A stretch of 64,000 nucleotides of DNA from a virus: the IMG/VR virus record IMGVR_UViG_3300005095_000015, positions 31,676-95,675 of that record, one strand, 5' to 3'. The position numbers and the translations under genes are program-made. Below are positions 34,228 through 60,440 of the stretch, piece after piece (position 1 is the first letter of the stretch; each line of letters begins with the position of its first letter). The notes beneath the pieces were generated by a model. The model was not told the DNA's origin. It made no database searches and worked only from the letters and a program-made list of their open reading frames with translations.

Positions 34228-35550
34228 ATGTCTATCCTTGCTCTTTCAACAGGAATTGAACTTGGACTTATCACCGAGCTTGCTAAACACGATAAGGTTT
34301 ATCTCTTTGCTGATTACATTTCCCCTTTTCCTGAGTTTGAAGAGCTTGCTATAGGCAGAAATTTACCTAACATAGAACCTATAACGACTTTAGATATAGA
34401 GCTTAAACAAATCAGCAAGGTAGTTGCTTTTGACTGTTACTTTGGATTCATTATAGAGTTGTTCAAAAGGTTAAATATTCCAACTTTTGGCGCTGGTAAT
34501 GAGGCAGAGCTGGAGAACAATCGTAAGTTACAAAAACAGCTCATACCTAATCCATCTCCTTACGAAGAGACAACCTTTGACAATCTAAAACCAGGTAAAG
34601 TCATCAAGGTTAATCCTATCTACAGAGGCTCTTTTGAGACTGCCGTGGTAAGAACACAGGCTGAGCTCGACTTCTTCAAGGAAATGCTTAAGCGTAATGG
34701 TGGACCTCTGGCTGAGGAGATAACCTATTTTGAAGAGGATGTTCTTGACATAGAATTTGAGATTGGAATAGATACTGTGTGCCTTGGTAATGGTTTAGAG
34801 TTTCCCTTGTTCTTTGGTATAGAGCAAAGCAAGAGCACCTATATGGCTGTGGTTATATCTGACTGGGAATCTTTAAGTAGATTCCCACTCTATAAAAACA
34901 CTTTTGCCTTACATGAAGTGCTCAAAAAGTACGGTTACAAAGGATTCTTCAGTACAGAAGAGATTGTAACAAAAAGCCGTCCATCTGAGTCTTACCTCAT
35001 TGATATTTGCATGAGAGCTCCTTTCCCACTTGGATGTTCTTACCCAAAGTTCTATAACAACTTTGCTAACATAGTACTAAAAGAGAAAAAGCCAAGAATA
35101 GATGCTAAGTTTGTAGTTTCTATTCCTCTAACCACCAGATTAGCAAACGACTACTTTGTGCCAGCTATCTTTAAAGACCAAACTATGTTTAACAAGTACA
35201 TAACTCTACAAACTTTCTACAAACCGAAGAAGCAACCAAGAAATGCCATTCTGCTCTATTACATAAAAGGTTATAGCAATATAGGTACAGTAACTTTGCT
35301 TTACAACGAGATTCCACCCGCAGACAGAATACTTGAGGATTATAACAAAGTAGTACAAACCATAGAAATCCCAGACTTGGTTGATGAAACAGGTACTATT
35401 GCTGAAAACTACGAATCGTTTATTCAAGCTCTAAACTTCTATGGTTATAATACTAAAAACAAAACTCAAATCTTTATTAACCAGCCAGAGGAGTCTTTCA
35501 GACCAGCTATTAAGGCAAAGGATGTATTAAAACTCCTTGAGATGAGGTAG
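34228..35550 (+). CDS. ATP-grasp ligase, PurD-like
   Basis: IPTFGAG.EAELE.NR..QK and YKGFFSTE.IV...YLID...R..FP resemble PurD segments. Confidence 0.6.
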   Translation: MSILALSTGIELGLITELAKHDKVYLFADYISPFPEFEELAIGRNLPNIEPITTLDIELKQISKVVAFDCYFGFIIELFKRLNIPTFGAGNEAELENNRKLQKQLIPNPSPYEETTFDNLKPGKVIKVNPIYRGSFETAVVRTQAELDFFKEMLKRNGGPLAEEITYFEEDVLDIEFEIGIDTVCLGNGLEFPLFFGIEQSKSTYMAVVISDWESLSRFPLYKNTFALHEVLKKYGYKGFFSTEEIVTKSRPSESYLIDICMRAPFPLGCSYPKFYNNFANIVLKEKKPRIDAKFVVSIPLTTRLANDYFVPAIFKDQTMFNKYITLQTFYKPKKQPRNAILLYYIKGYSNIGTVTLLYNEIPPADRILEDYNKVVQTIEIPDLVDETGTIAENYESFIQALNFYGYNTKNKTQIFINQPEESFRPAIKAKDVLKLLEMR

Positions 35551-49502: not shown

Positions 49503-51035
49503 ATGGTATTACGCAAAAGACAAATTGACACAACAATTGAGCAAAGGATACTCACCGGATTTATTGTTAGTACTGCTTTCTGTAAAAAGGTATTACCAAT
49601 TGCAAAGGAAGTGTATTTCACAAATTCTTATGGGAGGAGAGTATTTGGGTGGGTAAAGGAGTATTTTAACAAGTATGAGAAAGCACCCTTTCGTGATATA
49701 CAACTTATCTTTGAAACTGAACGCAGTAAGTTGAAGTCTGATGAGGCAGAGCTTATTGAGCAATTCTTGCTCAAGCTTTCAGAACAATATGAGAACGAAG
49801 AATCTATAAATTATGACTATTTTGTTGATCAGGCTTTAACTTATTTTCGTAAGCGTTCACTTGAGGTTTTGGCTGATCAGTTGAAAGTAGCTTTGATGAG
49901 AGATCATGTAGAAGAAGCAGAGAGGCTTCTGGATAGCTACAAGGATATAGCAAAAGAGGTAAGTGGGTGGGAAGACCCGTTTGCATCTGAAAGTATTTGG
50001 GAAGTATTTGAGAAGGAATCAGACCAGTTGTTTACATTCCCTGGTGCGTTGGGTGAGATGGTAGGGCCTTTGGAGCGAGGACAATTGGTCGGTGTTATGG
50101 GCTCTATGAAAAAAGGCAAGAGTTGGGTTTTGCAAGAGTTTGCTATACAGGCAGTAGCTGCCAAGCTTAGAACTGTTTATATCTCATTGGAAATGCCTTC
50201 AAAGCAGGTGAAAGCTCGTTTGTTAAAGAGAATAGCTGGAAAAGGGTTTCAAGAGATCTTATACTATCCTTGTTTTGATTGTAAGAAAAACCAATCAGGT
50301 TCTTGTATGCGATCAGAGCGAACAAGCACAGTACCTTTACTTGTTAATGGGAAACTACCCAGCCCAGAGGAAGCCCCACCTGATTATCAACCATGTACTT
50401 ATTGTCGTGACCGTGGATTATCTGAATGGGATCCAGCAGTTTGGTATACTTTTGTCAAGATACCACCTTTAACTTATCCAGAAGCAGTTAGAAAGGTTAA
50501 GTCTTTCAAAACCATGTTTGGAGATAGAATAAGAGTAAAATCTTATCCTTCATTTTCAGCAACTTTACGGCAAATTTTGTCAGATTTGGAAAATCTTGAA
50601 TATACTGAGGACTTTCCACCAGATGTAATAGTTGTAGATTATGCTGATATTATAGCTCCCAGCAGATTTGTAGGTGAGGAGAGAACCGGAATAAACGAGA
50701 TTTGGAAGCAGTTAAAAAGGTTAGCAATGGAGAAGAAATGTCTTGTTGTTACAGCTACACAAACAAACCGTGGTGGTATTCGTAAAGCTGTGGTTACGGA
50801 AGAGGATACAGCAGAGGATATTAGAAAGCTTGCTCATGTAGATTTGCTCCTCACTTTAAACCAAACCCCTCTGGAGAAAAGGTTAGGTATGTTGAGGATA
50901 GGTGTGTTGGTAAGGCGTGAAGGTGATTTTTCTCATGAGAAGCAGGTTGCGGTGTTAACGAATTGGAAAGCGGGACAACTGCTGCTTGATAGTGAGTGGT
51001 GGGATGCTCCTGAAGAGGAAAAGAATGAAAATTAG
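49503..51035 (+). CDS. dnaB: DnaB-like (SF4) replicative helicase with Cys-rich insertion
   Basis: GSMKKGKS, ISLEM, VIVVDYAD, TATQTNR, AEDIRK. Confidence 0.88.
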   Translation: MVLRKRQIDTTIEQRILTGFIVSTAFCKKVLPIAKEVYFTNSYGRRVFGWVKEYFNKYEKAPFRDIQLIFETERSKLKSDEAELIEQFLLKLSEQYENEESINYDYFVDQALTYFRKRSLEVLADQLKVALMRDHVEEAERLLDSYKDIAKEVSGWEDPFASESIWEVFEKESDQLFTFPGALGEMVGPLERGQLVGVMGSMKKGKSWVLQEFAIQAVAAKLRTVYISLEMPSKQVKARLLKRIAGKGFQEILYYPCFDCKKNQSGSCMRSERTSTVPLLVNGKLPSPEEAPPDYQPCTYCRDRGLSEWDPAVWYTFVKIPPLTYPEAVRKVKSFKTMFGDRIRVKSYPSFSATLRQILSDLENLEYTEDFPPDVIVVDYADIIAPSRFVGEERTGINEIWKQLKRLAMEKKCLVVTATQTNRGGIRKAVVTEEDTAEDIRKLAHVDLLLTLNQTPLEKRLGMLRIGVLVRREGDFSHEKQVAVLTNWKAGQLLLDSEWWDAPEEEKNEN

Positions 51036-51066
51036 TGTTTCATCTCTAAAGTGCAAAGGTTATAAT
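51036..51066 (+). promoter_or_regulatory. Conserved 31-bp phage promoter, copy 2
   Basis: Identical to copy 1; upstream of queD. Confidence 0.85.
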
Positions 51067-51102
51067 AATAAGTGAAAGGGAATACAGTTAGGAGGGTTAG
51101 TT

Positions 51103-51645
51103 ATGGAAACAAAATTACCACTCAAATGTCCCGATTGTAGTTGTGATGATATAAAAACATGGACACTTATGCATAATGGTAAGTATTTACTAACAGTGTT
51201 TTATTGTCCTGAGTGTAATCACTTTGATGTTATACCATTGACTGCTTCACCAAGGAAACAAGGCGCTTCATCAGAGATCAAAGTTACGGTTACTAAGAAG
51301 TTTGCTTTTGATTTTGCTCACAAGCTCCCAGGTTACAAGGGATCATGTGGTAAACTTCATGGGCATAGAGGGATTCTAGAAGTAGAAGTCAGTGGGCCTC
51401 CAAAGAATTCCGGGGAAGTTTATGCTACAATGGTGCTTGATTTCAATGATTTGAAAAAGATTATTCATGAAAAAGTTATTTCTAAATTTGATCATGCTTA
51501 TTTGAATGATTTCTTTCAATACCCTACAGCTGAAGAGATGGTTAGATATGTGGTAAAAGTCTTGAAAAGCGAGTTTGATGACAATCTTGTAAGGGTTAGA
51601 TTCTATGAGACGCCGGATAGCTATGCTGAATGGAAGAAGGAATAA
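51103..51645 (+). CDS. queD: 6-carboxytetrahydropterin synthase with N-terminal zinc ribbon
   Basis: AH.L....C..LHGH, DF..LK, DH.YLN, PTAE, ETP. Confidence 0.92.
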   Translation: METKLPLKCPDCSCDDIKTWTLMHNGKYLLTVFYCPECNHFDVIPLTASPRKQGASSEIKVTVTKKFAFDFAHKLPGYKGSCGKLHGHRGILEVEVSGPPKNSGEVYATMVLDFNDLKKIIHEKVISKFDHAYLNDFFQYPTAEEMVRYVVKVLKSEFDDNLVRVRFYETPDSYAEWKKE

Positions 51646-51648
51646 CCA

Positions 51649-51897
51649 ATGAGTGAACAAAACAGATTTTACCAGTATCTGAAGGACTCTGAAGGTATTC
51701 CGTTAAGCGATGTAAGGTTGCTCTATCCGTACTATGGCGGAGTGGATGGAACCAAGATGCATATTAGTTTGAATTATGTTGATATAGAGTGCGAAGAGTG
51801 CGGTTACGGTTCTGAGGCAGATATAACTATTAGAGTTTTATGTGATAATCGTCAGAGGGTTATACATTGGCGCAAAATAACTCTCTACGGAGGATAG
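51649..51897 (+). CDS. Hypothetical protein
   Basis: AAGGA RBS; CEECG. Confidence 0.55.
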   Translation: MSEQNRFYQYLKDSEGIPLSDVRLLYPYYGGVDGTKMHISLNYVDIECEECGYGSEADITIRVLCDNRQRVIHWRKITLYGG

Positions 51898-51899
51898 CT

Positions 51900-52589
51900 A
51901 TGCAGCACTTTCCGGTAGTAGAAGCTTTCAAGTCTATACAGGGAGAAGGTCCCTTTGCGGGACATCCTGCATTCTTCCTGCGGGTTAAGAAGTGTAATTA
52001 CAATGGTGAATGCATTGTCGGTTGCGATACTATTCCAAGAACTAGGAATTTGGAAGAGTTGCTTATTCCTTATGATTCTGTCTTGCAGAAGGCTAAAGAA
52101 GTGGGCAGGATCGTAATAACAGGCGGCGAACCTACTTTGTACTATGCGGAGGTAGTCAATTTGCTTAAGTATCTCGATACTTGGTTAGAGCCAGATAAGC
52201 AAGTGTTTGTGGAGATAGAAACTAATGGTTACTTGTTACACGAACTTCTTTCTGAGCTTCCTCATTTCACTCATCTCAAGATATGGATCAATTGGAGTCC
52301 TAAAGAATACAGCATAAATAACTTTCGGCTCAAATATGATCAATGCAAACAACTTCGTGCATCTTATATTACAGGTTATTGTATCAAAGTTGTGGTTTGG
52401 GATTCTATGAAAGTTAAAACTTTTGTCATTGATTTAGTTGAAGCAGGTTTCAGTAAAGCTCTTTGGCTTATGCCGAGAGGAAAGACAGCAGAAGAACTTA
52501 AGCAATCTTGGCCTGTAGTGTATAAGCTTGCAATGGAGTATAATCTAAAGATTTCGGGTAGGTTGCAAATTGAAGGACAAATTTTATGA
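51900..52589 (+). CDS. queE: 7-carboxy-7-deazaguanine synthase (radical SAM)
   Basis: F.SIQGEG, FLR, ITGGEP, IETNG, SPK; Cys motif CX5CX3C; GGAGG before ATG 51900. Confidence 0.9.
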   Translation: MQHFPVVEAFKSIQGEGPFAGHPAFFLRVKKCNYNGECIVGCDTIPRTRNLEELLIPYDSVLQKAKEVGRIVITGGEPTLYYAEVVNLLKYLDTWLEPDKQVFVEIETNGYLLHELLSELPHFTHLKIWINWSPKEYSINNFRLKYDQCKQLRASYITGYCIKVVVWDSMKVKTFVIDLVEAGFSKALWLMPRGKTAEELKQSWPVVYKLAMEYNLKISGRLQIEGQIL

Positions 52590-52594
52590 TATTT

Positions 52595-52633
52595 TGTTTC
52601 ATCTCTGATGTCGATATCATATTATCATATAAT
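52595..52633 (+). promoter_or_regulatory. Divergent copy of the conserved promoter
   Basis: TGTTTCATCTCT conserved; TATTAT at 17-bp spacing and a TATAAT downstream. Confidence 0.6.
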
Positions 52634-52670
52634 ATAAGATGAAGGAGAAAATAGTAAGGAGGTAGGAGAG

Positions 52671-53288
52671 ATGAAGGATGCAAAAGAGATCAGCGTAAGA
52701 GCTTTACTTAAAGCCATAAAGGATTTTAATGAATTGGAAATCATGGAACCTATTGAGATTCCCAACAAGAAGCGCCTTACGAGAAAAGATATAGAGCGTC
52801 TTAGAGATGAGTTTGTTGATGCGATTGAGAGTCTGACTGAAGATGAGGAAGAGTTGCTGCCTGATAGTGTGGTGGACATGTATCATGATATAGTTGCTGA
52901 TGAGTTAGAGGAAGAATATGATGAGGAGAAAGTCGAGGTTCAGGCTGAAGAGATTCCGGTTGGTCCTGCGGGGCAGAAAGCTAAAGAAGAATTTAAACAG
53001 CAGAGTGCAAAGCTTCGATCTTCTGCTATTCAGGTCAATATTGTGAAGGAAAAATCTAAAAGTGAGCAAAAGGTTAAGAAAGGTAAAGGTGAAAGGTTAG
53101 CCTTTTTAGAAACACTTATTGCGGAGGGTAAACACACGGTAGAAGCTATTGTTGAGATGTATGTGAAGAAGTTTGGAACTTCTCCTAATACAGTTAAAAC
53201 CTATATCTATGATGGAAAGAATCCCAAATACTGTAAGTTTTCTAAGCTTGTTAAGATTGAGAATGGTATTGTTAAGTTTGAAGAATAA
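52671..53288 (+). CDS. Hypothetical acidic protein with C-terminal HTH-like region
   Basis: AAGGAGGT RBS; intact ORF. Confidence 0.65.
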   Translation: MKDAKEISVRALLKAIKDFNELEIMEPIEIPNKKRLTRKDIERLRDEFVDAIESLTEDEEELLPDSVVDMYHDIVADELEEEYDEEKVEVQAEEIPVGPAGQKAKEEFKQQSAKLRSSAIQVNIVKEKSKSEQKVKKGKGERLAFLETLIAEGKHTVEAIVEMYVKKFGTSPNTVKTYIYDGKNPKYCKFSKLVKIENGIVKFEE

Positions 53289-53310
53289 AGTAGATAAGAG
53301 GAGGTAGGTC

Positions 53311-54036
53311 ATGAATGATTTGTTAGGAAAACCGAAAAGGGCTTTGGTAGTCTTGTCAGGAGGGCAAGACTCTACCACCACACTTTTCATTGCTATTCAT
53401 AGGTATGGGTTTAAAGACATTTTAGCTCTCACATTTGATTACAAACAGCGCCATAGGATTGAGATTGAGGCGGCTAAGAAGGTGGTAGAGGTTGCGAGTG
53501 AGTATTGCGATAAGATTGAGCACAGAATTATCAACACAGAGATTATGAGAGAGATTGGTGAGTCTGCTCTTTTGAATACTGAAGATGATATTTCTGTGGC
53601 GCACAAAAGGGATAGCAATTTGCCTGCAAGCTTTCTACCAGGTAGAAATCTTATCTTTCTTACTGCCGCAGCTATGATTGCTTATAGTGAGAGGATCCAT
53701 GATATCTTCACTGGTGTATGCCAAACAGACTATTCTGGTTATCCTGATTGTCGCGACGCTACAATCAAAGCCCTCAATGTTACTTTAGATCTTGGAATGG
53801 ATTATCAATTTAGGATTCATACTCCTATGATGTGGATAACTAAGAAGGAAGAGGTAGAGCTTGCTACCACTTTGCCCGGTTGTATGGAAGCACTCGCTTA
53901 TAGCCATACTTGTTACAATGGTAAGTTCCCACCTTGTGGTGAATGTCCTGCGTGTAAACTTAGAGCAAAAGGGTTTGAGGAGGCAGGAATTGAAGATCCT
54001 TTGATTACAAGAGTTAAAAAAGAAGGATTGTTCTAA
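53311..54036 (+). CDS. queC: 7-cyano-7-deazaguanine synthase
   Basis: SGGQDS, FDYKQRH, PGRN, YPDC, CY...CGECPAC. Confidence 0.95.
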   Translation: MNDLLGKPKRALVVLSGGQDSTTTLFIAIHRYGFKDILALTFDYKQRHRIEIEAAKKVVEVASEYCDKIEHRIINTEIMREIGESALLNTEDDISVAHKRDSNLPASFLPGRNLIFLTAAAMIAYSERIHDIFTGVCQTDYSGYPDCRDATIKALNVTLDLGMDYQFRIHTPMMWITKKEEVELATTLPGCMEALAYSHTCYNGKFPPCGECPACKLRAKGFEEAGIEDPLITRVKKEGLF

Positions 54037-54046
54037 GGAGGGGCAA

Positions 54047-54646
54047 ATGAAAAGAGTGTCTCTGTTTGAGAAAGATATTGAGGATACACTTAAAGGATTT
54101 ATACGGTTGCTTTTTGAATGGGTAGGAGAAGATCCGGCAAGGGATGGTTTGAGGGAGACTCCTGATCGTATAGTGAGGATGTGGAAGGAAATTTTTAGAG
54201 GATATGATCCTGCACAGAAGCCGAAGGTTACTGTGTTTGAGAATGGCGGGGATGTAAAGTATTCTGGTATGATTATAGACCATGGTTATTTTTTCTCTAT
54301 TTGTGAGCATCATATGGTACCTTTCTTTGGTCATTACTATTTTGGTTACATACCTGATAAATGGCTTGTAGGTGCGAGTAAGATAGGAAGAGTGGTTGAT
54401 TATTTCTCTGCGAGGCTTCAGGTTCAGGAGAGGCTTTGTGAGCAGATTGCGGATTTCTTTGATGAGGTGTTGAAGCCCAAAGGATTGATTGTACTCATGA
54501 GAGGTAGACATCTCTGTAAAGAGATGCGTGGGTTGAGAAAGTACAATTCTCCTTTTGAAACCATAGCGGTGAGGGGGGTGTTTGAGAGAAATGAAGATGG
54601 TTGTAAGGATGAGTTTATGTCAAGAGTTTTAAATATTAGAGATTAG
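54047..54646 (+). CDS. folE: GTP cyclohydrolase I
   Basis: GL.ETP.R, CEHH, SKIGR, RLQVQERL, HLC..MRG. Confidence 0.95.
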   Translation: MKRVSLFEKDIEDTLKGFIRLLFEWVGEDPARDGLRETPDRIVRMWKEIFRGYDPAQKPKVTVFENGGDVKYSGMIIDHGYFFSICEHHMVPFFGHYYFGYIPDKWLVGASKIGRVVDYFSARLQVQERLCEQIADFFDEVLKPKGLIVLMRGRHLCKEMRGLRKYNSPFETIAVRGVFERNEDGCKDEFMSRVLNIRD

Positions 54647-54654
54647 GTGGGTTT

Positions 54655-55131
54655 ATGAGTGCAGAAGTAAAGATAGTTTATGGAAAGGATAGGCACTTAG
54701 AGGCTGTATGTGATATTTTTGATGATGATTATGTGATCCTTGGGCTTCCGAACTTGCCAGCTTTGAGGGAAAGTATTGAGAGGAAGGAGCTTCTTGTAGC
54801 AGAAGTGAAAGGAGAAGTTGTTGGGTTTGTGGAATTTCATATTAGAAAGGACAAAAAAGCCACTCTTTATCATATTGGGGTGAGAAAAGATTGGAGAAAG
54901 AAAAGCATAGGCAAAAAACTTATTCAGCGTCTCATAGAGGTATGCAAGGAAAGAGGATGTCATGAGATTAGATTACTTTGTCCAGAATGGGGTGAAGCGG
55001 ATAAGTTTTATAAGCGGGTTGGGTTTGAGTGTATAGGAAAAGAGAGTAGAGTGAATAGAAAAGGAGTCAAGAGAAATTTTACAGTTTGGAGGTACAAGTT
55101 AAGTTTTGGTAAAGTACACCCTCTATTCTGA
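54655..55131 (+). CDS. GNAT-family N-acetyltransferase
   Basis: VVGF, IGV..DWRKKSIGKKLI (motif A), FYKRVGF. Confidence 0.9.
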   Translation: MSAEVKIVYGKDRHLEAVCDIFDDDYVILGLPNLPALRESIERKELLVAEVKGEVVGFVEFHIRKDKKATLYHIGVRKDWRKKSIGKKLIQRLIEVCKERGCHEIRLLCPEWGEADKFYKRVGFECIGKESRVNRKGVKRNFTVWRYKLSFGKVHPLF

Positions 55132-55172
55132 ACTCTACATAAAGACTAAAATACAAATAAAAGGAGGTAAAG

Positions 55173-55616
55173 ATGGAAGAAAAGAAACCGCTTGAGGAGA
55201 AGCTTCTTGAGGATGAGAAAGCACTTCTACCAGGAAGTAAAGTGAAATGGTATCAGTTTTCTGAACCAAAGAAAGAAATCTTAAGGACTTTTCCAAGTCC
55301 TAAGCCTGAGGCTGAGTTTGAGGTTGTAATTGAGACAGAAGAAATGACAGCGCTTTGTCCTTTGACTGGCCACCCGGATTTTTATTATGTGAAGGTATCT
55401 TATGTGCCTGATAAACTTTGTGTAGAGTCTAAAAGTATTAAGTTCTACTTTGGTGCCTTTCGCAACTACAATGGATTCATTGAGACAATTGCTAATAAGA
55501 TTCTTGATGATCTTGTAGAGGTTTTGAAACCAAGAAAAGCCTCTGTTTGTATCCGTATGAAACCTCGTGGTGGTATTCCTATTACTGTTGTTAGAGAGTA
55601 TAAGGCAGAGAAGTAA
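55173..55616 (+). CDS. queF: NADPH-dependent preQ0 reductase (type I)
   Basis: CPLTGHPDF catalytic Cys/Asp; QueF motif ESKSIKFY; PRGGI. Confidence 0.9.
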   Translation: MEEKKPLEEKLLEDEKALLPGSKVKWYQFSEPKKEILRTFPSPKPEAEFEVVIETEEMTALCPLTGHPDFYYVKVSYVPDKLCVESKSIKFYFGAFRNYNGFIETIANKILDDLVEVLKPRKASVCIRMKPRGGIPITVVREYKAEK

Positions 55617-55675
55617 GGCTTAAAAGGGGCGGTGATTTTGCTCCTCCTCACCTTTTTGTTTGGGAGGTAAAAAGT

Positions 55676-56635
55676 ATGGGGCAACATCCCTTCATATTAT
55701 ATTTTGCAAGTACATCACCTACGAAGAAAGAACTTGAGATGATAAAAGTGAAGAACCGACTATTCTCTTATTTCTATAAAGAAGGGATTCTATCTTGGGT
55801 TAAGTACTGTAGAGAGTGTTCATTTGAAGGTGGAAAGGTGGTTCTTGATTCTGGTGCTTTTTCTGCATGGAGTAGAGGAGAGGAGATTGACCTTGATAAG
55901 TACATTGAGTTTGCCCATCAGATGAGAAAGGAGTTTAGGAAGCTTGGAATGGAGCTTTTCATTGTCAATCTTGATGTGATTCCAGGAAAGAAAGGAGAGA
56001 CAAGTTCATTGAATAGGGGATTTAATCAGGAGATAATTGATCAGGCAGCGGCTAAGGGGTTTCAGAATATGCTTAGGATGATTGAGAATGGAATTAAGCC
56101 AATTCATGTCTTCCATCAAGGTGAGAGTTTCAAGTGGTTGGATAAGATGGTTGAACATGTAGACTATATAGGGATTTCGCCCGCAAATGATCTACCTACT
56201 ATACAGAAAAGGCGCTGGATAGATTCAGTGTTTGATTATTTAGTGAAGAATGGGATCAAAGTTAGGACGCATGGGTTTGCTGTCACATCACCGAGTATGA
56301 TGCGTGATTATCCTTGGACAAGTTGTGATTCCTCCACCTGGAGAGTGCTTGCAGGCATGGGCGGAATTTACTATCCGGTTGGTGGTTTCAAGAACGCTGA
56401 TTATTCAAAACAGCCTCTAATGATTCATATGGGTCGTAAAAGGGATTTGTCTCCTGGTGAGGAGAAAAGGTTGAAGGCAATGCTTGAAGCTGATGGTTAT
56501 CAATGGGAGAAAGTTATTGAAGATGCTAATGTGAGGGCGGCCATAAACGCTCGGTATTTTTTAGGTCTTGAGGAGTATATCAATAAGCAAAGGAAGAAGT
56601 CAGCTTTTAAAGTAAGAAAAGGATTCTTCAAATAA
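55676..56635 (+). CDS. dpdA: DNA 7-deazaguanine transglycosylase (DpdA / TGT-like)
   Basis: LDSGAFS, NLDVI, HVFHQGE, HGFA, SCDSSTW; located in the que cluster. Confidence 0.85.
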   Translation: MGQHPFILYFASTSPTKKELEMIKVKNRLFSYFYKEGILSWVKYCRECSFEGGKVVLDSGAFSAWSRGEEIDLDKYIEFAHQMRKEFRKLGMELFIVNLDVIPGKKGETSSLNRGFNQEIIDQAAAKGFQNMLRMIENGIKPIHVFHQGESFKWLDKMVEHVDYIGISPANDLPTIQKRRWIDSVFDYLVKNGIKVRTHGFAVTSPSMMRDYPWTSCDSSTWRVLAGMGGIYYPVGGFKNADYSKQPLMIHMGRKRDLSPGEEKRLKAMLEADGYQWEKVIEDANVRAAINARYFLGLEEYINKQRKKSAFKVRKGFFK

Positions 56636-56656
56636 ACTCTACTGGGAGGAGACAAA

Positions 56657-57682
56657 GTGAAGTATAGAAAAGATAAACTAGCAGGTCTGCTAAAACTTTT
56701 ACGACGCCTTGTGGATAAAAGTAATGTTTTAGGAGAGACAATCTGTTTTCTTCCCGGAAAGCTTGTCGGATATGATGGAATGGTTTCTATGCAGATTCCT
56801 TTTGATACTGATCTTTCTTGTGGAATAGAACCAGATAAGTTACTTTCTGTGTTGAATGGGGTGAAGGATAGTGAGGTAGATTTATCACTTAGAGATGGTG
56901 TGCTTAAACTCTCCTCCGCAGATACCAAGGCTGAACTTAAGGTTAATACTGATATTGAGATGTTTGAGGTGTTTGATACTTCAAGCATAAAATTCAAACC
57001 TCTACCAAGGGATTTGCCTGATGCTATGTATTTGGTTTCATTTTCAACCTCAAGAGATATCACAAACAAAGTATTTTCTTGTGTTTATGTAGATGGGGAT
57101 ATGCTCTTTGCTACTGATAATTTTAGAGTTAGTAAATATACCTTAGCGGAACCAGTTGATGCCTCTTTTTTAATTCCTGCTCCTTCTATAGTTAAACTAA
57201 TATCTTTCTCTAAAGAGTTTCCATTAAAAGGATTTACTTGGGATGGTGCTTGGATTCATTTTACAGGTAAAGGAGGAGCGATGTTTAGTTGTCGTCTGTT
57301 TTTAGATGAGGAGTTCCCTAAGAGAGATGCGATTTTGCCTCTTTTTGAGATTGAAGGAAAAGAATTTTGTTTTCCTCCAGAAGTTAAGGAAGCAGTAGAG
57401 GTGGTATCTTTTCTTGTTAAAGATCAGTTTGAGCTTGACAGAATCGTTTCTATTACAATAAGAAAGGATAAGGTTATATGTCGGGCGGAGAGAGAAGGAG
57501 AATGGGTTGAGAAGATAGTCCCATTTCAAGGAAATGAAGAGTTTCAATTTTTGTGTAATCCAACTTTTATGATAGAGGCACTTGGGAGGGCTTTTGAAGT
57601 GGTTGTAGGTGAAAGGAGTATTTTGTTTAGATCTCAGTCTGGCAGTTTTGAGCATCTTGTGGCGCTTTGTATAGAAGAGTAG
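56657..57682 (+). CDS. dnaN: DNA sliding clamp (Pol III beta-like)
   Basis: ATDNFRV, FSCRL..EEFP, NPTFMIEAL; three-domain length. Confidence 0.8.
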   Translation: MKYRKDKLAGLLKLLRRLVDKSNVLGETICFLPGKLVGYDGMVSMQIPFDTDLSCGIEPDKLLSVLNGVKDSEVDLSLRDGVLKLSSADTKAELKVNTDIEMFEVFDTSSIKFKPLPRDLPDAMYLVSFSTSRDITNKVFSCVYVDGDMLFATDNFRVSKYTLAEPVDASFLIPAPSIVKLISFSKEFPLKGFTWDGAWIHFTGKGGAMFSCRLFLDEEFPKRDAILPLFEIEGKEFCFPPEVKEAVEVVSFLVKDQFELDRIVSITIRKDKVICRAEREGEWVEKIVPFQGNEEFQFLCNPTFMIEALGRAFEVVVGERSILFRSQSGSFEHLVALCIEE

Positions 57683-57692
57683 GGAGGATGGA

Positions 57693-60440
57693 ATGAGATT
57701 AAAGGGATTTTTTATTAAAGAGGAGAAACTTTCTAAGACTAAAAAACCTACTCTTACCACCCGAAGAACCATCTCTTCTAAAACGAGAAAACAGAGAGTT
57801 ACTCATATTGCTGATCCATGTGAGGTTTGTGGTCTTTATAAAAACTGTCTCTCTCCTAAGATGAACTACACCGGAAAAGGTGGACTTGGTGTATTGATTG
57901 TTGCTGAAGCTCCTGGAGAAGAGGAGGATAAGAAAGGCATGCAGCTCATCGGTCCAGCGGGTCAGGTGTTAAGAGAGAAACTTGCTAAGTTTGGGCTTGA
58001 TTTAGATAGAGACTTTTGGAAGATAAACGCTGTAAATTGCCATCCTCCAGGCAATGCAAAGCCTACCAGGAAGCAGTTGGAATGCTGTCGCCCAATGGTT
58101 GAGAAAGCTATACAGGAACTTAAGCCAAAGTTCATTTGGCTGCTTGGCGGTAAAGCTATTGAAAGTTTCTATATGGGCAGGTTCCGTGATCATTCTGTTA
58201 CTCGTTGGCGTAGACTTTGTATTCCTGATAGAAGGTATAATGCTTGGATAATTCCTCTCTTCCATCCTTCTTACCTTCTTCATAGTCGGGGAAATGATCT
58301 TGTTGAATCTCTTTATGAGAAGGATCTTAGATGGGCAATTAGTTGTTTACGGCGAGGAGAACCTGAGTTTGTAGATCCTGAGGATTATGTAGAGATCTTG
58401 ATTGAGTTTGATAAGGTAGCGGAGGTACTTGAAGAGGTTTTAAGGAGAAAACCTGTTCTGGCGTTTGACTACGAGACAACAGGATTGAAACCTTATAGAG
58501 AAGGCCATAAAATCTTGTCAGTGTCTCTTTGTTTTGATAAAGAGATTGCTTATGCTTTCCCTTTGTATTATCGTAACCATTGGGATCAGAAGCAACTAAA
58601 GGTTATTGTTGATTTATGGAAAAGAGTTCTTAGAGAGGTTCCACTTGTTGCTCATAATTTGAAGTTTGAGGATCGTTGGAGTAGAGTAATTCTTGGTATA
58701 GAGCCAAAGAATTGGATTTGGGATACTATGGTCACTGCCCATGTGCTTGATAGCCGTCCTGGGTTCACTTCACTTAAGTTTCAAGCTTATCTGCATTGGG
58801 GGATTTTAGGGTATGATGACGAGATAAAGTCCTACATAAGAAGCAAAGATGCTCATTCATTCAATAAGATGGAGCAGGCCCCGCTTGACAAATTGCTCTT
58901 CTACAACGCAATTGACTCTTTAGTGACTTATTGGTTGTATGAGAAACAGAAAAAGGAGCTTAGGGGAGACTTAAAGCGAGCCAATGCTTTCTTTCTCAAA
59001 GGGCTTAAAGCATTAGCTGATGCCGAGAATCACGGAATCAGGATGGATGAAGAGCACTACGAACAGCAATATGTTGAACTTACAAGGGAGATCAAGGAGC
59101 TTGAACAAGAGCTTTTGAATTCTGAAGAGGCTTTGCTGTTTAGAAAGAAGACAGGTAGGGCAATAAAGCTAACCTCTTCTACTGATCTTAGGATTCTCTT
59201 CTATGATATTCTAAAGATTCCTCCTATTAAGTACACTGAGAAGGGAGAGCCTTCGGTAGATAAGGAGGTTCTGGCTAATTTAGAGAATGAGTTTGCGAAA
59301 AAGCTTGCAAGGTTAAGGAAGTTGTTGAAAGTCAGAGATACTTACTTGGCTCAGTTTAGACGCGAGATTGTAAATGGCAAAATGTATCCGGTGTTTAACC
59401 TGCATATAGCCAGAACTTATCGTTCGAGTTCTGAGACGCCTAACTTTCAGAACATACCTGCAAGGGATGAGGATGCCAAAAGAGTTACTCGAGGAGGAAT
59501 TATTCCCTCTCCCGGGTTTAGAATATGTGAAGTTGACTATAGTGCAATTGAGGTTAGGATCATTGCCTGCTACACAAAAGATCCAGTTTTGATTTCTTAC
59601 ATACATGATCCGTCTTCAGATATGCATCGAGATCAAGCAAAAGAGATATTCATTCTTACCGATGAACAGGTTACAAAAGAGCTTCGTTCTTATGCTAAGA
59701 ATAAATTTGTCTTTCCAGAGTTCTACGGTTCTTACTATAAGAGCTGTGCAAGGGATCTTTGGGAGTTTGTGGTAGATGCGGGGCTATTGACGGCAGAAGG
59801 TATCACTGTGAAAGAGCACCTTGCCCGCTATGGAATAAAGACTTATGAGCGGTTTGAAAGGCATATTCAAGAGGTAGAAGCTAAGTTTTGGGACAGATTT
59901 AGAGTAGTAAGGGAATGGCAAGAAGAAATGATAGAGTTTTACAAGCGTCGCGGGTATGTCAGTACATACTTTGGGTTCCGCAGAACAGATCCTCTGGATA
60001 GAAACCGTATCATTAACTCTCCTATTCAGGGCACAGCGTTTCATTGTTTGCTTTGGTCCTTTATTAGGTTGAATGAGATCAGGAAAGAGGAAGGCTGGAG
60101 GACAGCTTTGATAGGTCAGATTCATGACTCTATTGTGTCTGACTTAGATCTGGATGAAACAGATCATGTGCTTACAACTTATCGAAGGGTTATGTGCGAG
60201 GATATCAGGAAAGAATTTGATTGGATCATTGTTCCGCTCGAGATAGAGATTGAAATGTCCCCTATTGATAAGAGTTGGTATGATAAGAAAGAAACTACAA
60301 AGGATAAGGTTGAATTTCCTGACGGCGAGGTTAGAGAAGAATGGATTATGCTTTTGGATAAAGAGAACGGCGTTCTTGCTACTAAGGATGAGCCTGAGGT
60401 AGTGAAGGAAGGAGATGTTTGGAAAGTTGTTCCTTTTTAA
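57693..60440 (+). CDS. polA: Family A DNA polymerase with N-terminal family-4 UDG-like domain and 3'-5' exonuclease
   Basis: CEVC/AEAPG/HPS; DYETTG; motifs DYSAIEVR, R..AK..YG, HDS. Confidence 0.95.
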   Translation: MRLKGFFIKEEKLSKTKKPTLTTRRTISSKTRKQRVTHIADPCEVCGLYKNCLSPKMNYTGKGGLGVLIVAEAPGEEEDKKGMQLIGPAGQVLREKLAKFGLDLDRDFWKINAVNCHPPGNAKPTRKQLECCRPMVEKAIQELKPKFIWLLGGKAIESFYMGRFRDHSVTRWRRLCIPDRRYNAWIIPLFHPSYLLHSRGNDLVESLYEKDLRWAISCLRRGEPEFVDPEDYVEILIEFDKVAEVLEEVLRRKPVLAFDYETTGLKPYREGHKILSVSLCFDKEIAYAFPLYYRNHWDQKQLKVIVDLWKRVLREVPLVAHNLKFEDRWSRVILGIEPKNWIWDTMVTAHVLDSRPGFTSLKFQAYLHWGILGYDDEIKSYIRSKDAHSFNKMEQAPLDKLLFYNAIDSLVTYWLYEKQKKELRGDLKRANAFFLKGLKALADAENHGIRMDEEHYEQQYVELTREIKELEQELLNSEEALLFRKKTGRAIKLTSSTDLRILFYDILKIPPIKYTEKGEPSVDKEVLANLENEFAKKLARLRKLLKVRDTYLAQFRREIVNGKMYPVFNLHIARTYRSSSETPNFQNIPARDEDAKRVTRGGIIPSPGFRICEVDYSAIEVRIIACYTKDPVLISYIHDPSSDMHRDQAKEIFILTDEQVTKELRSYAKNKFVFPEFYGSYYKSCARDLWEFVVDAGLLTAEGITVKEHLARYGIKTYERFERHIQEVEAKFWDRFRVVREWQEEMIEFYKRRGYVSTYFGFRRTDPLDRNRIINSPIQGTAFHCLLWSFIRLNEIRKEEGWRTALIGQIHDSIVSDLDLDETDHVLTTYRRVMCEDIRKEFDWIIVPLEIEIEMSPIDKSWYDKKETTKDKVEFPDGEVREEWIMLLDKENGVLATKDEPEVVKEGDVWKVVPF

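Follow-up and report, generated by a model that had tools for sequence, protein, structure and literature searches.

A small GNAT-type acyltransferase encoded by an uncultured phage is proposed here, with moderate confidence and by analogy to characterized enzymes, to acetylate the aminomethyl nitrogen of 7-aminomethyl-7-deazaguanine (preQ1), a reaction that would place 7-(acetamidomethyl)-7-deazaguanine in DNA. The gene lies in a stretch of 64,000 nucleotides (the window, bases 31676-95675 of the 95,675-bp IMG/VR virus record IMGVR_UViG_3300005095_000015, which has direct terminal repeats and a completeness rating of 100%), within a block of phage genes whose predicted products make up an entire pathway by which preQ1 would be synthesized and inserted into DNA. 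The conserved partner of the GNAT is the transglycosylase DpdA rather than the reductase QueF, and it is very likely that GNAT and DpdA work together in DNA modification. A first-pass annotation made from the sequence alone had already cast the GNAT as a tailoring enzyme of the 7-deazaguanine pathway, and this predicted, dedicated role is supported through comparative genomics by its recurrence in DpdA clusters, by its fusion to DpdA-like domains in cellular genomes and by its exchange of position with the methyltransferase DpdM.

FolE, QueD, QueE and QueC together convert GTP to preQ0, QueF reduces preQ0 to preQ1, and DpdA swaps guanine in DNA for preQ1. The product of QueF is a primary aliphatic amine, and amines are the groups that GNATs acylate. 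In the proposed reaction, acetyl-coenzyme A (acetyl-CoA) would serve the GNAT in acetylating the primary amine of the preQ1 aminomethyl side chain, and the product in DNA would be heavier than inserted preQ1 (dPreQ1) by 42 Da. N-acetylation of this group is the best reading of the data because the GNAT family is linked and in places fused to DpdA, because it exchanges places with DpdM, because the window GNAT is the only one in a genome in which neither a DpdM nor a formyltransferase was found, and because a phage acetyltransferase acting on a DNA base, gp48 of PaMx11, scores close to the family.

The strongest argument that the GNAT performs a DpdM-like task, namely derivatization of the preQ1 amine, is that these two unrelated proteins alternate directly before the insertion enzyme. 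DpdM is a validated dPreQ1 methyltransferase (PMC10516641). Syntenic relatives of the window, with DpdA proteins 33-48% identical to its own, share the layout queD-queE-(orf205)-queC-folE-X-queF-dpdA-clamp, where X is DpdM in L020, L028, L035, L038 and L033 (E-values of 1e-41 to 1e-10 against CEPG_00054 of Cellulophaga phage phiSM) and a GNAT in the window and in L130. The DpdM slot stands directly before queF-dpdA in these relatives, and after folE wherever the contig reaches that far; in L029, DpdM is again directly before queF-dpdA and the contig begins within it. The alternation is repeated in a second, unrelated group of phages (L050, L039, L051, L058, L042 and L045) that is syntenic around polymerase-X-dpdA. 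Here X is a GNAT in L050 and L039, DpdM in L051-57, an open reading frame (ORF) of 197 amino acids in L058, a QueC-like protein in L042 and QueT in L045. The GNAT-dpdA locus L050 and the DpdM-dpdA locus L051 are syntenic with each other and their DpdA proteins are 51% identical.

Other ORFs have been seen directly upstream of dpdA in the same slot, comprising the 197-amino-acid type (L058 9375-9968; also L060, L061 and L067) and one of 536 amino acids in another group (L059 8382-9992), and these are candidates for further tailoring enzymes. A 147-amino-acid ORF in the folE-queF slot of L003 was considered as a GNAT and rejected, as it is not one.

The family itself recurs with DpdA. A survey took in 80 IMG/VR loci that encode relatives of this DpdA, together with 10 kb on either side, and every ORF was scanned with a GNAT family profile built from the 74 best relatives of the window GNAT. 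The profile matched three of these loci, each time inside a deazaguanine cluster: L013, where a GNAT of 125 amino acids lies between orf197 and queC; L039, where the GNAT gene overlaps dpdA and is followed by queF-queC-queD-queE-folE; and L050, where it likewise overlaps dpdA. One more locus, L130, came from scanning the genomes of prokaryotes. It is a phage-like contig from a Zixibacteria bin, and its order queC-queE-queD-folE-GNAT-queF-dpdA has the run folE-GNAT-queF-dpdA in common with the window. Among 50,697 deposited phage records, the only match of the window GNAT was in Thermocrinis Great Boiling Spring virus (TGBSV), in which the last 4 bp of the GNAT gene are also the first of a DpdA-like gene, with a clamp gene next in order. 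Megablast of the cluster against the same records returned no near relative.

An exhaustive HMMER search of 1.84 billion representatives yielded one close relative of the window GNAT, P0002 (69% identity, on a contig of 931 bp), followed by the P0003 cluster at 41% and then by generic-looking GNATs at 30-45%; a search of viral contigs for related loci with the window GNAT and with P0003 found none. Contigs carrying the P0003 GNAT (L007-L009) are arranged in the order clamp-like gene, folE, queC, GNAT, orf204, a CxxCxxCC (DpdM-like) protein and queE, and the sole phage-database match of the CxxCxxCC protein of the L009 lineage is CEPG_00054, the DpdM of phiSM. The 204-residue protein encoded between the GNAT and the DpdM-like gene (L009 3903-4517; L008 671-1285) is rich in cysteine and matches no family and nothing in the phage database. 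In a tree of the family, the window GNAT, P0002 and the P0003/L009 group form a supported clade (Shimodaira-Hasegawa approximate likelihood-ratio test, SH-aLRT, 95), and the phage members as a whole fall into at least four separate clades (window/P0002/L009; L002/L130; L039/L050; TGBSV) that are interleaved with cellular members, so that linkage to DpdA must have arisen or been kept repeatedly.

Two further observations concern TGBSV. A SAVED-domain protein (PF18145, 6e-15; L011 3246-3956) is encoded directly upstream of its GNAT-dpdA pair, and a preprint from 2025 about a SAVED ring nuclease of viral origin (10.1101/2025.07.01.662501) reportedly mentions Thermocrinis and Great Boiling Spring; the pyrovirus paper describing TGBSV makes no mention of an acetyltransferase or of queuosine. 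In addition, a PurD/PurK-like ATP-grasp protein of the window (34228-35550), for which Pfam gives no family, shares 38% identity with a TGBSV protein annotated as phosphoribosylaminoimidazole carboxylase (L012 10023-11213). These two GNAT-dpdA phages have little else in common, and no other pair of their proteins matches as strongly. This protein was considered as a third member of the module and set aside, being absent from the complete L050 phage and from the other GNAT loci examined.

The cellular relatives of the GNAT family that were retrieved belong mostly to Chloroflexota and Cyanobacteria. In Cyanobacteria and Fervidibacter, the GNAT constitutes the N-terminal domain of proteins of 460-490 amino acids (L117-L129), the C-terminal part of which matches the TGBSV DpdA-like protein with E-values of 1e-57 to 1e-66, and a single locus from Chloroflexota has a DpdA-like gene, weakly matching PF01702, 5 kb upstream. 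GNATs paired with homologues of tRNA-guanine transglycosylase (TGT), described as "occasionally fused", were proposed on computational grounds to be the putative modification apparatus of BREX-related "BRC" systems (Nucleic Acids Research 2026; PMC12839542), a study that left the chemistry open and assumed dPreQ0 plus an unspecified acyl mark (PMC12839542).

The GNAT of the window is modelled with confidence (AlphaFold pLDDT 93, pTM 0.86) and its fold matches at least 500 GNAT structures in the PDB at a probability of 1.0. To judge from alignments, the features for use of acetyl-CoA are present: the pyrophosphate-binding loop of CoA (consensus Q/R-x-x-G-x-G/A) is found as R81-K-K-S-I-G86, with Ser at the first Gly position, in alignment with YpeA and the family consensus, and the tyrosine of the FY(K/R)xxGF motif is kept as F118-Y119 in alignment with solved GNATs. 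The protein also carries both motifs of its family, FH.R(R/K)D...T.Y.I.V and LKCP...A(N/D).FY..GF...VW, and scores 174.7 bits against the family profile, the alignment of which includes the window GNAT itself. It is basic, with an isoelectric point of 9.5, and the last ten residues of its C terminus, which finish in HPLF, are modelled as disordered. The whole 95.7-kb genome contains a single PF00583 match, which is the window GNAT, one gene away from dpdA, and a search of the complete genome for PF03692 (DpdM type) and PF00551 (DpdN type) found neither.

The closest precedent for the proposed chemistry is gp48 of phage PaMx11, a GNAT that converts 5-aminomethyl-deoxyuridine to 5-acetylaminomethyl-deoxyuridine in oligonucleotides with acetyl-CoA (Lee et al., Nucleic Acids Research 2021/22; PMC8989533). 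The two proteins are 35% identical over 88 amino acids of the core, with an hhalign probability of 98.6%. Against the family profile, gp48 scores 62.6 bits, as compared to 55-67 bits for divergent DpdA-linked GNATs and 27-34 bits for a pair of bystander GNATs encoded at the same loci, and in the tree it is placed just outside the DpdA-linked family on a long branch.

Curated profiles confirm six of the seven named genes of the block, all except dpdA, and matches to Pfam, NCBIfam and PHROGs cover all four enzymes of the preQ0 pathway, FolE, QueD, QueE and QueC. QueF was read in the first-pass annotation as a reductase and not as QueF-L, and this assignment holds: the protein passes the equivalog cut-off of TIGR03139 for the unimodular reductase, and alignment to Bacillus subtilis QueF (4F8B) reveals that the catalytic Cys (ALCPLTGHPDF), the Asp of PDF, the ESKS motif, an instance of the NADPH motif E(S/L)K(S/A), and the Glu are all kept. 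The equivalent of His96 is Ile, a position occupied by Met, Ile or Gln in the QueF proteins of DpdM-carrying phages, phiSM included. The DNA of phiSM contains methyl-dPreQ1 (PMC10516641), and the altered residue is thus no argument against synthesis of preQ1. In related phages, the QueF sequence contains an intein that carries an HNH endonuclease (PF14890, PF13392; L003 6541-7989, L018, L030), and a long queF is present in L019.

DpdA gave no Pfam match, PF01702 included, and a profile search of a DpdA alignment against PDB sequences found none. Its model (pLDDT 93) has TGTs as all of its best PDB matches in a fold search, and with homologues from Dp-1, 9g-like and Vibrio phages it shares 29-31% identity across 84-97% of the protein. 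The Dp-1 homologue, annotated as queuine tRNA-ribosyltransferase, is 31% identical over 97% of the length, and those of 9g-like coliphages, some of them annotated as "7-deazaguanosine inserting enzyme", about 31% over 84%. The DNA of Streptococcus phage Dp-1 carries dPreQ1 (PMC6884629).

If the GNAT does acetylate preQ1, the reaction would be somewhat likelier to occur after insertion, on DNA, than on the free base, given that gp48 acts on DNA, that DpdM is proposed by its validators to do the same (PMC10516641) and that the family is fused to DpdA-like domains. The resulting amide would remove the positive charge and enlarge the major-groove substituent, and the acetylated side chain would be expected to change how the DNA is recognized, both by restriction enzymes and by glycosylases of defence systems that sense the group at C7.

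Several findings weigh against N-acetylation of preQ1. Donor, acceptor and product of the acyl transfer are all predicted from chemistry and analogy. Comparison with solved GNATs by fold and by sequence brought up generic members of the superfamily (ArsN, phosphinothricin acetyltransferases, RimI, YpeA), and a protein-atlas search with the GNAT likewise gave generic clusters, so that these matches say nothing about the substrate. The L009 lineage has a GNAT and a DpdM-like gene together, and the two enzymes are accordingly not strict alternatives. The GNAT is also rare, being found in 3 of 48 dereplicated DpdA clusters: two of the 25 with queF, none of the 10 with que genes but no queF, and one of the 13 without que genes, counts too small for a correlation between GNAT and QueF to be shown statistically. 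The first-pass annotation had named a lack of linkage to queF and dpdA in other genomes as one finding that would refute the prediction, and the genomes surveyed did not refute it, given that GNATs of the family recur in or beside DpdA clusters, are fused to DpdA-like domains and exchange places with DpdM. QueF is not the conserved partner: GNAT and dpdA stand together with no queF anywhere in TGBSV or in the complete phage of 60 kb to which L050 belongs. There the host must supply the base, and this might be preQ0, a compound that lacks an amine. G005, a complete phage with DpdM and dpdA, is likewise without queF and must take preQ1 from its host, and the absence of queF does not, therefore, exclude preQ1. 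Finally, the GNATs of L039 and L050 have a degenerate CoA loop, in which the canonical glycine is lost, and Trp in place of the Tyr, and those of L002 and L130 are without the first ~35 residues; members of the family need not all share one activity.

These degenerate sequences bear on the nature of the donor. A GNAT that decorates the preQ1 side chain with a group other than acetyl, be it an aminoacyl group from a charged tRNA or propionyl, malonyl or succinyl from the respective CoA thioester, would account equally well for all of the evidence of linkage to DpdA, and the loss of the canonical CoA-loop glycine and Tyr in the L039/L050 branch is in its favour. Mom, a GNAT that uses Gly-tRNA(Gly) on double-stranded DNA, shows that the co-substrate is not predictable from structure (PMC13219725), which is a further point against acetyl in particular. 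The window GNAT, however, keeps two marks of enzymes that use acetyl-CoA, the R-x-x-S-x-G loop and the FY motif, and its nearest characterized relative by profile score, gp48, uses acetyl-CoA (PMC8989533); a different acyl group is accordingly considered unlikely. The same low probability is given to a protein as the target, whether DpdA, the clamp or a host factor such as the host TGT, with acetylation regulating insertion or silencing a competing host activity. Tight linkage or fusion to DpdA would also be expected of a DpdA regulator, the structural neighbours of the GNAT include N-terminal and ribosomal-protein acetyltransferases (RimI, Ard1, NatC), and its best NCBIfam match is RimI, albeit well below the cut-off. 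Against this idea, we know of no protein-acetylating phage GNATs that track DpdA, and the alternation with the base-modifying DpdM at the same locus in two phage groups and the closeness of family scores to a DNA-base acetyltransferase both point to a nucleobase.

It is less probable still that GNAT and DpdA constitute a general DNA-marking module that bypasses the preQ1 amine in favour of another position or another base, with the window queF incidental to the GNAT. Such a module would explain both the two complete phages with GNAT-dpdA and no queF and the fusions in cellular genomes, but most bacterial hosts make preQ1 themselves by the queuosine pathway, and G005, which needs preQ1, dispenses with queF as well. 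Moreover, queF is present in all GNAT phage clusters with a readable que region (the window, L013, L039 and L130, the contigs L007-L009 being truncated), and on chemical reasoning the preQ1 aliphatic amine far surpasses any other nucleophile available. The assumption of dPreQ0 with an unspecified acyl mark in the BRC study also fits such a module (PMC12839542). Chance placement of an unrelated accessory gene in the cluster is very improbable. GNATs are common among phage accessory genes and 45 of 48 related DpdA clusters are without one, yet those that occur represent at least four clades of GNATs, recur independently and without exception inside the cluster, overlap dpdA or are fused to DpdA-like domains, and in the window the only GNAT of the entire genome is the one next but one to dpdA. 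N-acetylation of the preQ1 aminomethyl group is hence retained for the window GNAT. The broader proposition, that a GNAT and a DpdA-type transglycosylase, encoded separately, by overlapping genes or as a fusion, write an N-acylated 7-aminomethyl-7-deazaguanine (most simply N-acetyl-preQ1) in diverse phages and cellular defence loci, is held with as much doubt as conviction.

The arrangement of the block is given in the table. All long ORFs of the window are on the + strand, and the order from 51103 to 57682 is queD, orf82, queE, orf205, queC, folE, GNAT, queF, dpdA and sliding clamp, followed by a family-A DNA polymerase. The seven genes listed in the first-pass annotation (queD, queE, queC, folE, GNAT, queF and dpdA) are all present on this strand at the positions it gave, and two ORFs, orf82 and orf205, had been overlooked. 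Its description of the GNAT as tightly placed between folE and queF is accurate, with 8 nucleotides between the folE stop and the GNAT start, a GGTGGG ribosome-binding site ahead of the GNAT, and 41 nucleotides from the GNAT stop to the queF start. The clamp gene directly follows dpdA in most related clusters as well.

Table. Genes of the 7-deazaguanine block and the adjoining clamp gene, in window coordinates
Feature	Position	Strand	Matches and remarks
queD, 6-carboxytetrahydropterin synthase	51103..51645	+	PF01242 3e-28, TIGR03367 4e-24, phrog_2389
orf82, overlaps queE start	51649..51897	+	no Pfam, NCBIfam or PHROGs match
queE, radical-SAM 7-carboxy-7-deazaguanine synthase	51867..52589	+	phrog_2076 3e-30; TIGR03963 and PF04055 weak
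orf205	52671..53288	+	no family match; conserved cluster member
queC, 7-cyano-7-deazaguanine synthase	53311..54036	+	PF06508 3e-68; TIGR00364 222 bits, above cut-off
folE, GTP cyclohydrolase I	54047..54646	+	PF01227 2e-54; TIGR00063 181.7 bits, at cut-off
GNAT acyltransferase, 158 amino acids, candidate preQ1/dPreQ1 N-acetyltransferase	54655..55131	+	PF00583 1.8e-18
queF, unimodular NADPH-dependent preQ0 reductase	55173..55616	+	TIGR03139 132 bits vs cut-off 86.9
dpdA, predicted DNA guanine transglycosylase	55676..56635	+	phrog_887 2e-55; TGT fold
sliding clamp, beta-type	56657..57682	+	phrog_947 4e-25, TIGR00663 1e-9

A number of other features of the block are recorded here. The product of orf205 is acidic and rich in Lys, and at least 14 related clusters encode its C-terminal ~65 amino acids, in conserved form, at the same place between queE and queC, such that it looks like an unrecognized conserved member of these deazaguanine clusters. 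QueD bears an N-terminal extension of 60 amino acids (51103-51282) with two CxxC pairs (CPDC...CPEC) resembling a zinc ribbon, which is absent from the relatives inspected, and the family-A polymerase (57693-60440) has an N-terminal extension of ~250 amino acids with a GE.PG-type motif that, in sequence, is reminiscent of family-4 uracil-DNA glycosylases. A scan of 50900-57800 for promoters and terminators gave sites no more numerous than in shuffled sequence, and hence permits no statement on transcription units. By eye, the 59-nucleotide spacer between queF and dpdA (55617-55675) contains a short GC-rich inverted repeat followed by a T-run, a feature absent from the calls of the terminator scan.

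Several proteins of the block terminate in short hydrophobic sequences, namely the GNAT (...HPLF), QueC (...EGLF), DpdA (...KGFFK) and the polymerase (...VVPF), the last of which also starts with MRLKGFF. Relatives of the GNAT end similarly, P0002 in ...HSLF and the L050 GNAT in ...GGKLF. To go by their sequences, the hydrophobic terminal peptides of the block proteins could be candidates for docking to the clamp.

Eight 7-deazaguanine derivatives are known in DNA. If the proposal is true, the GNAT would add a new natural DNA base, the purine-side counterpart of 5-acetylaminomethyl-deoxyuridine, and a third interchangeable cap for the preQ1 amine, beside the methyl group of DpdM and the formyl group of DpdN. 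The exchange of GNAT and DpdM at one locus in two phage lineages suggests that the C7 side chain is diversified as a cassette, which makes sense in light of defence glycosylases that discriminate between 7-deazaguanine variants (bioRxiv 10.1101/2025.10.29.685425). The fusion of the same GNAT family to DpdA-like domains in cyanobacteria would suggest an activity for the GNAT/TGT modules of BREX-related systems, and the phage copies might then imitate a host self-mark. A neutral, bulky guanine analogue installed by an enzyme could also find use in the protection or labelling of DNA.

Literature searches returned no report of an acetylated 7-deazaguanine, of acetyl-preQ1 or of a GNAT in phage dpdA clusters, in agreement with the view of the first-pass annotation that acetylated dPreQ1 is unreported. 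The pairing of GNAT and TGT in cellular BRC systems is already known from computational work (PMC12839542). New here are the positional exchange with DpdM in two phage groups, the fusions tied to this GNAT family, the possible kinship to gp48 suggested by profile score, and a complete genome that has the full pathway, one GNAT and no rival tailoring enzyme.

Among known systems, the GNAT/TGT module of BRC (BREX-related capture) joins a GNAT to a DpdA/TGT homologue, at times in one protein, just as the window family does, and the fused cellular loci of this analysis are likened to BRC by that pairing. BRC loci are systems of cellular defence with PglZ, HerA/FtsK, STAND and DUF6079 partners and no que genes, whereas the window holds a lytic-phage preQ1 operon with its own QueF. 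Mom of phage Mu, likened to the window GNAT by fold, is also a phage enzyme of the GNAT type that modifies a base of double-stranded DNA after replication, as a counter to restriction (PMC13219725), but its donor is Gly-tRNA(Gly), its target is the N6 of adenine and it needs no transglycosylase. PaMx11 gp48 stands nearer, being a small phage GNAT of possible sequence kinship whose substrate is an aminomethyl group attached to a base and exposed in the major groove of polymeric DNA, where gp48 acetylates it; gp48 acts, however, on a pyrimidine derived from 5-hydroxymethyl-deoxyuridine in a thymidine hypermodification pathway and has no DpdA partner, in contrast to the 7-deazapurine inserted by transglycosylation in the window. 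The same place in the pathway is taken by DpdM and by DpdN, a predicted dPreQ1 N-formyltransferase (Cui, Hutinet et al., Nucleic Acids Research 2023; PMC10516641). Each is a single extra enzyme in a cluster of FolE, QueD, QueE, QueC, QueF and DpdA that, like the GNAT, would derivatize the preQ1 aminomethyl nitrogen, and the window GNAT occupies the very slot held by DpdM in syntenic relatives. DpdM, a CxxCxxCC metal protein, and the PurN-like DpdN differ from the GNAT in fold and cofactor, share no homology with it and are both absent from the window genome. Unlike the methyl and formyl products of these two enzymes, the predicted product of the GNAT would be an amide bearing a two-carbon acyl group, as yet unreported among the known ways of capping preQ1 in DNA.

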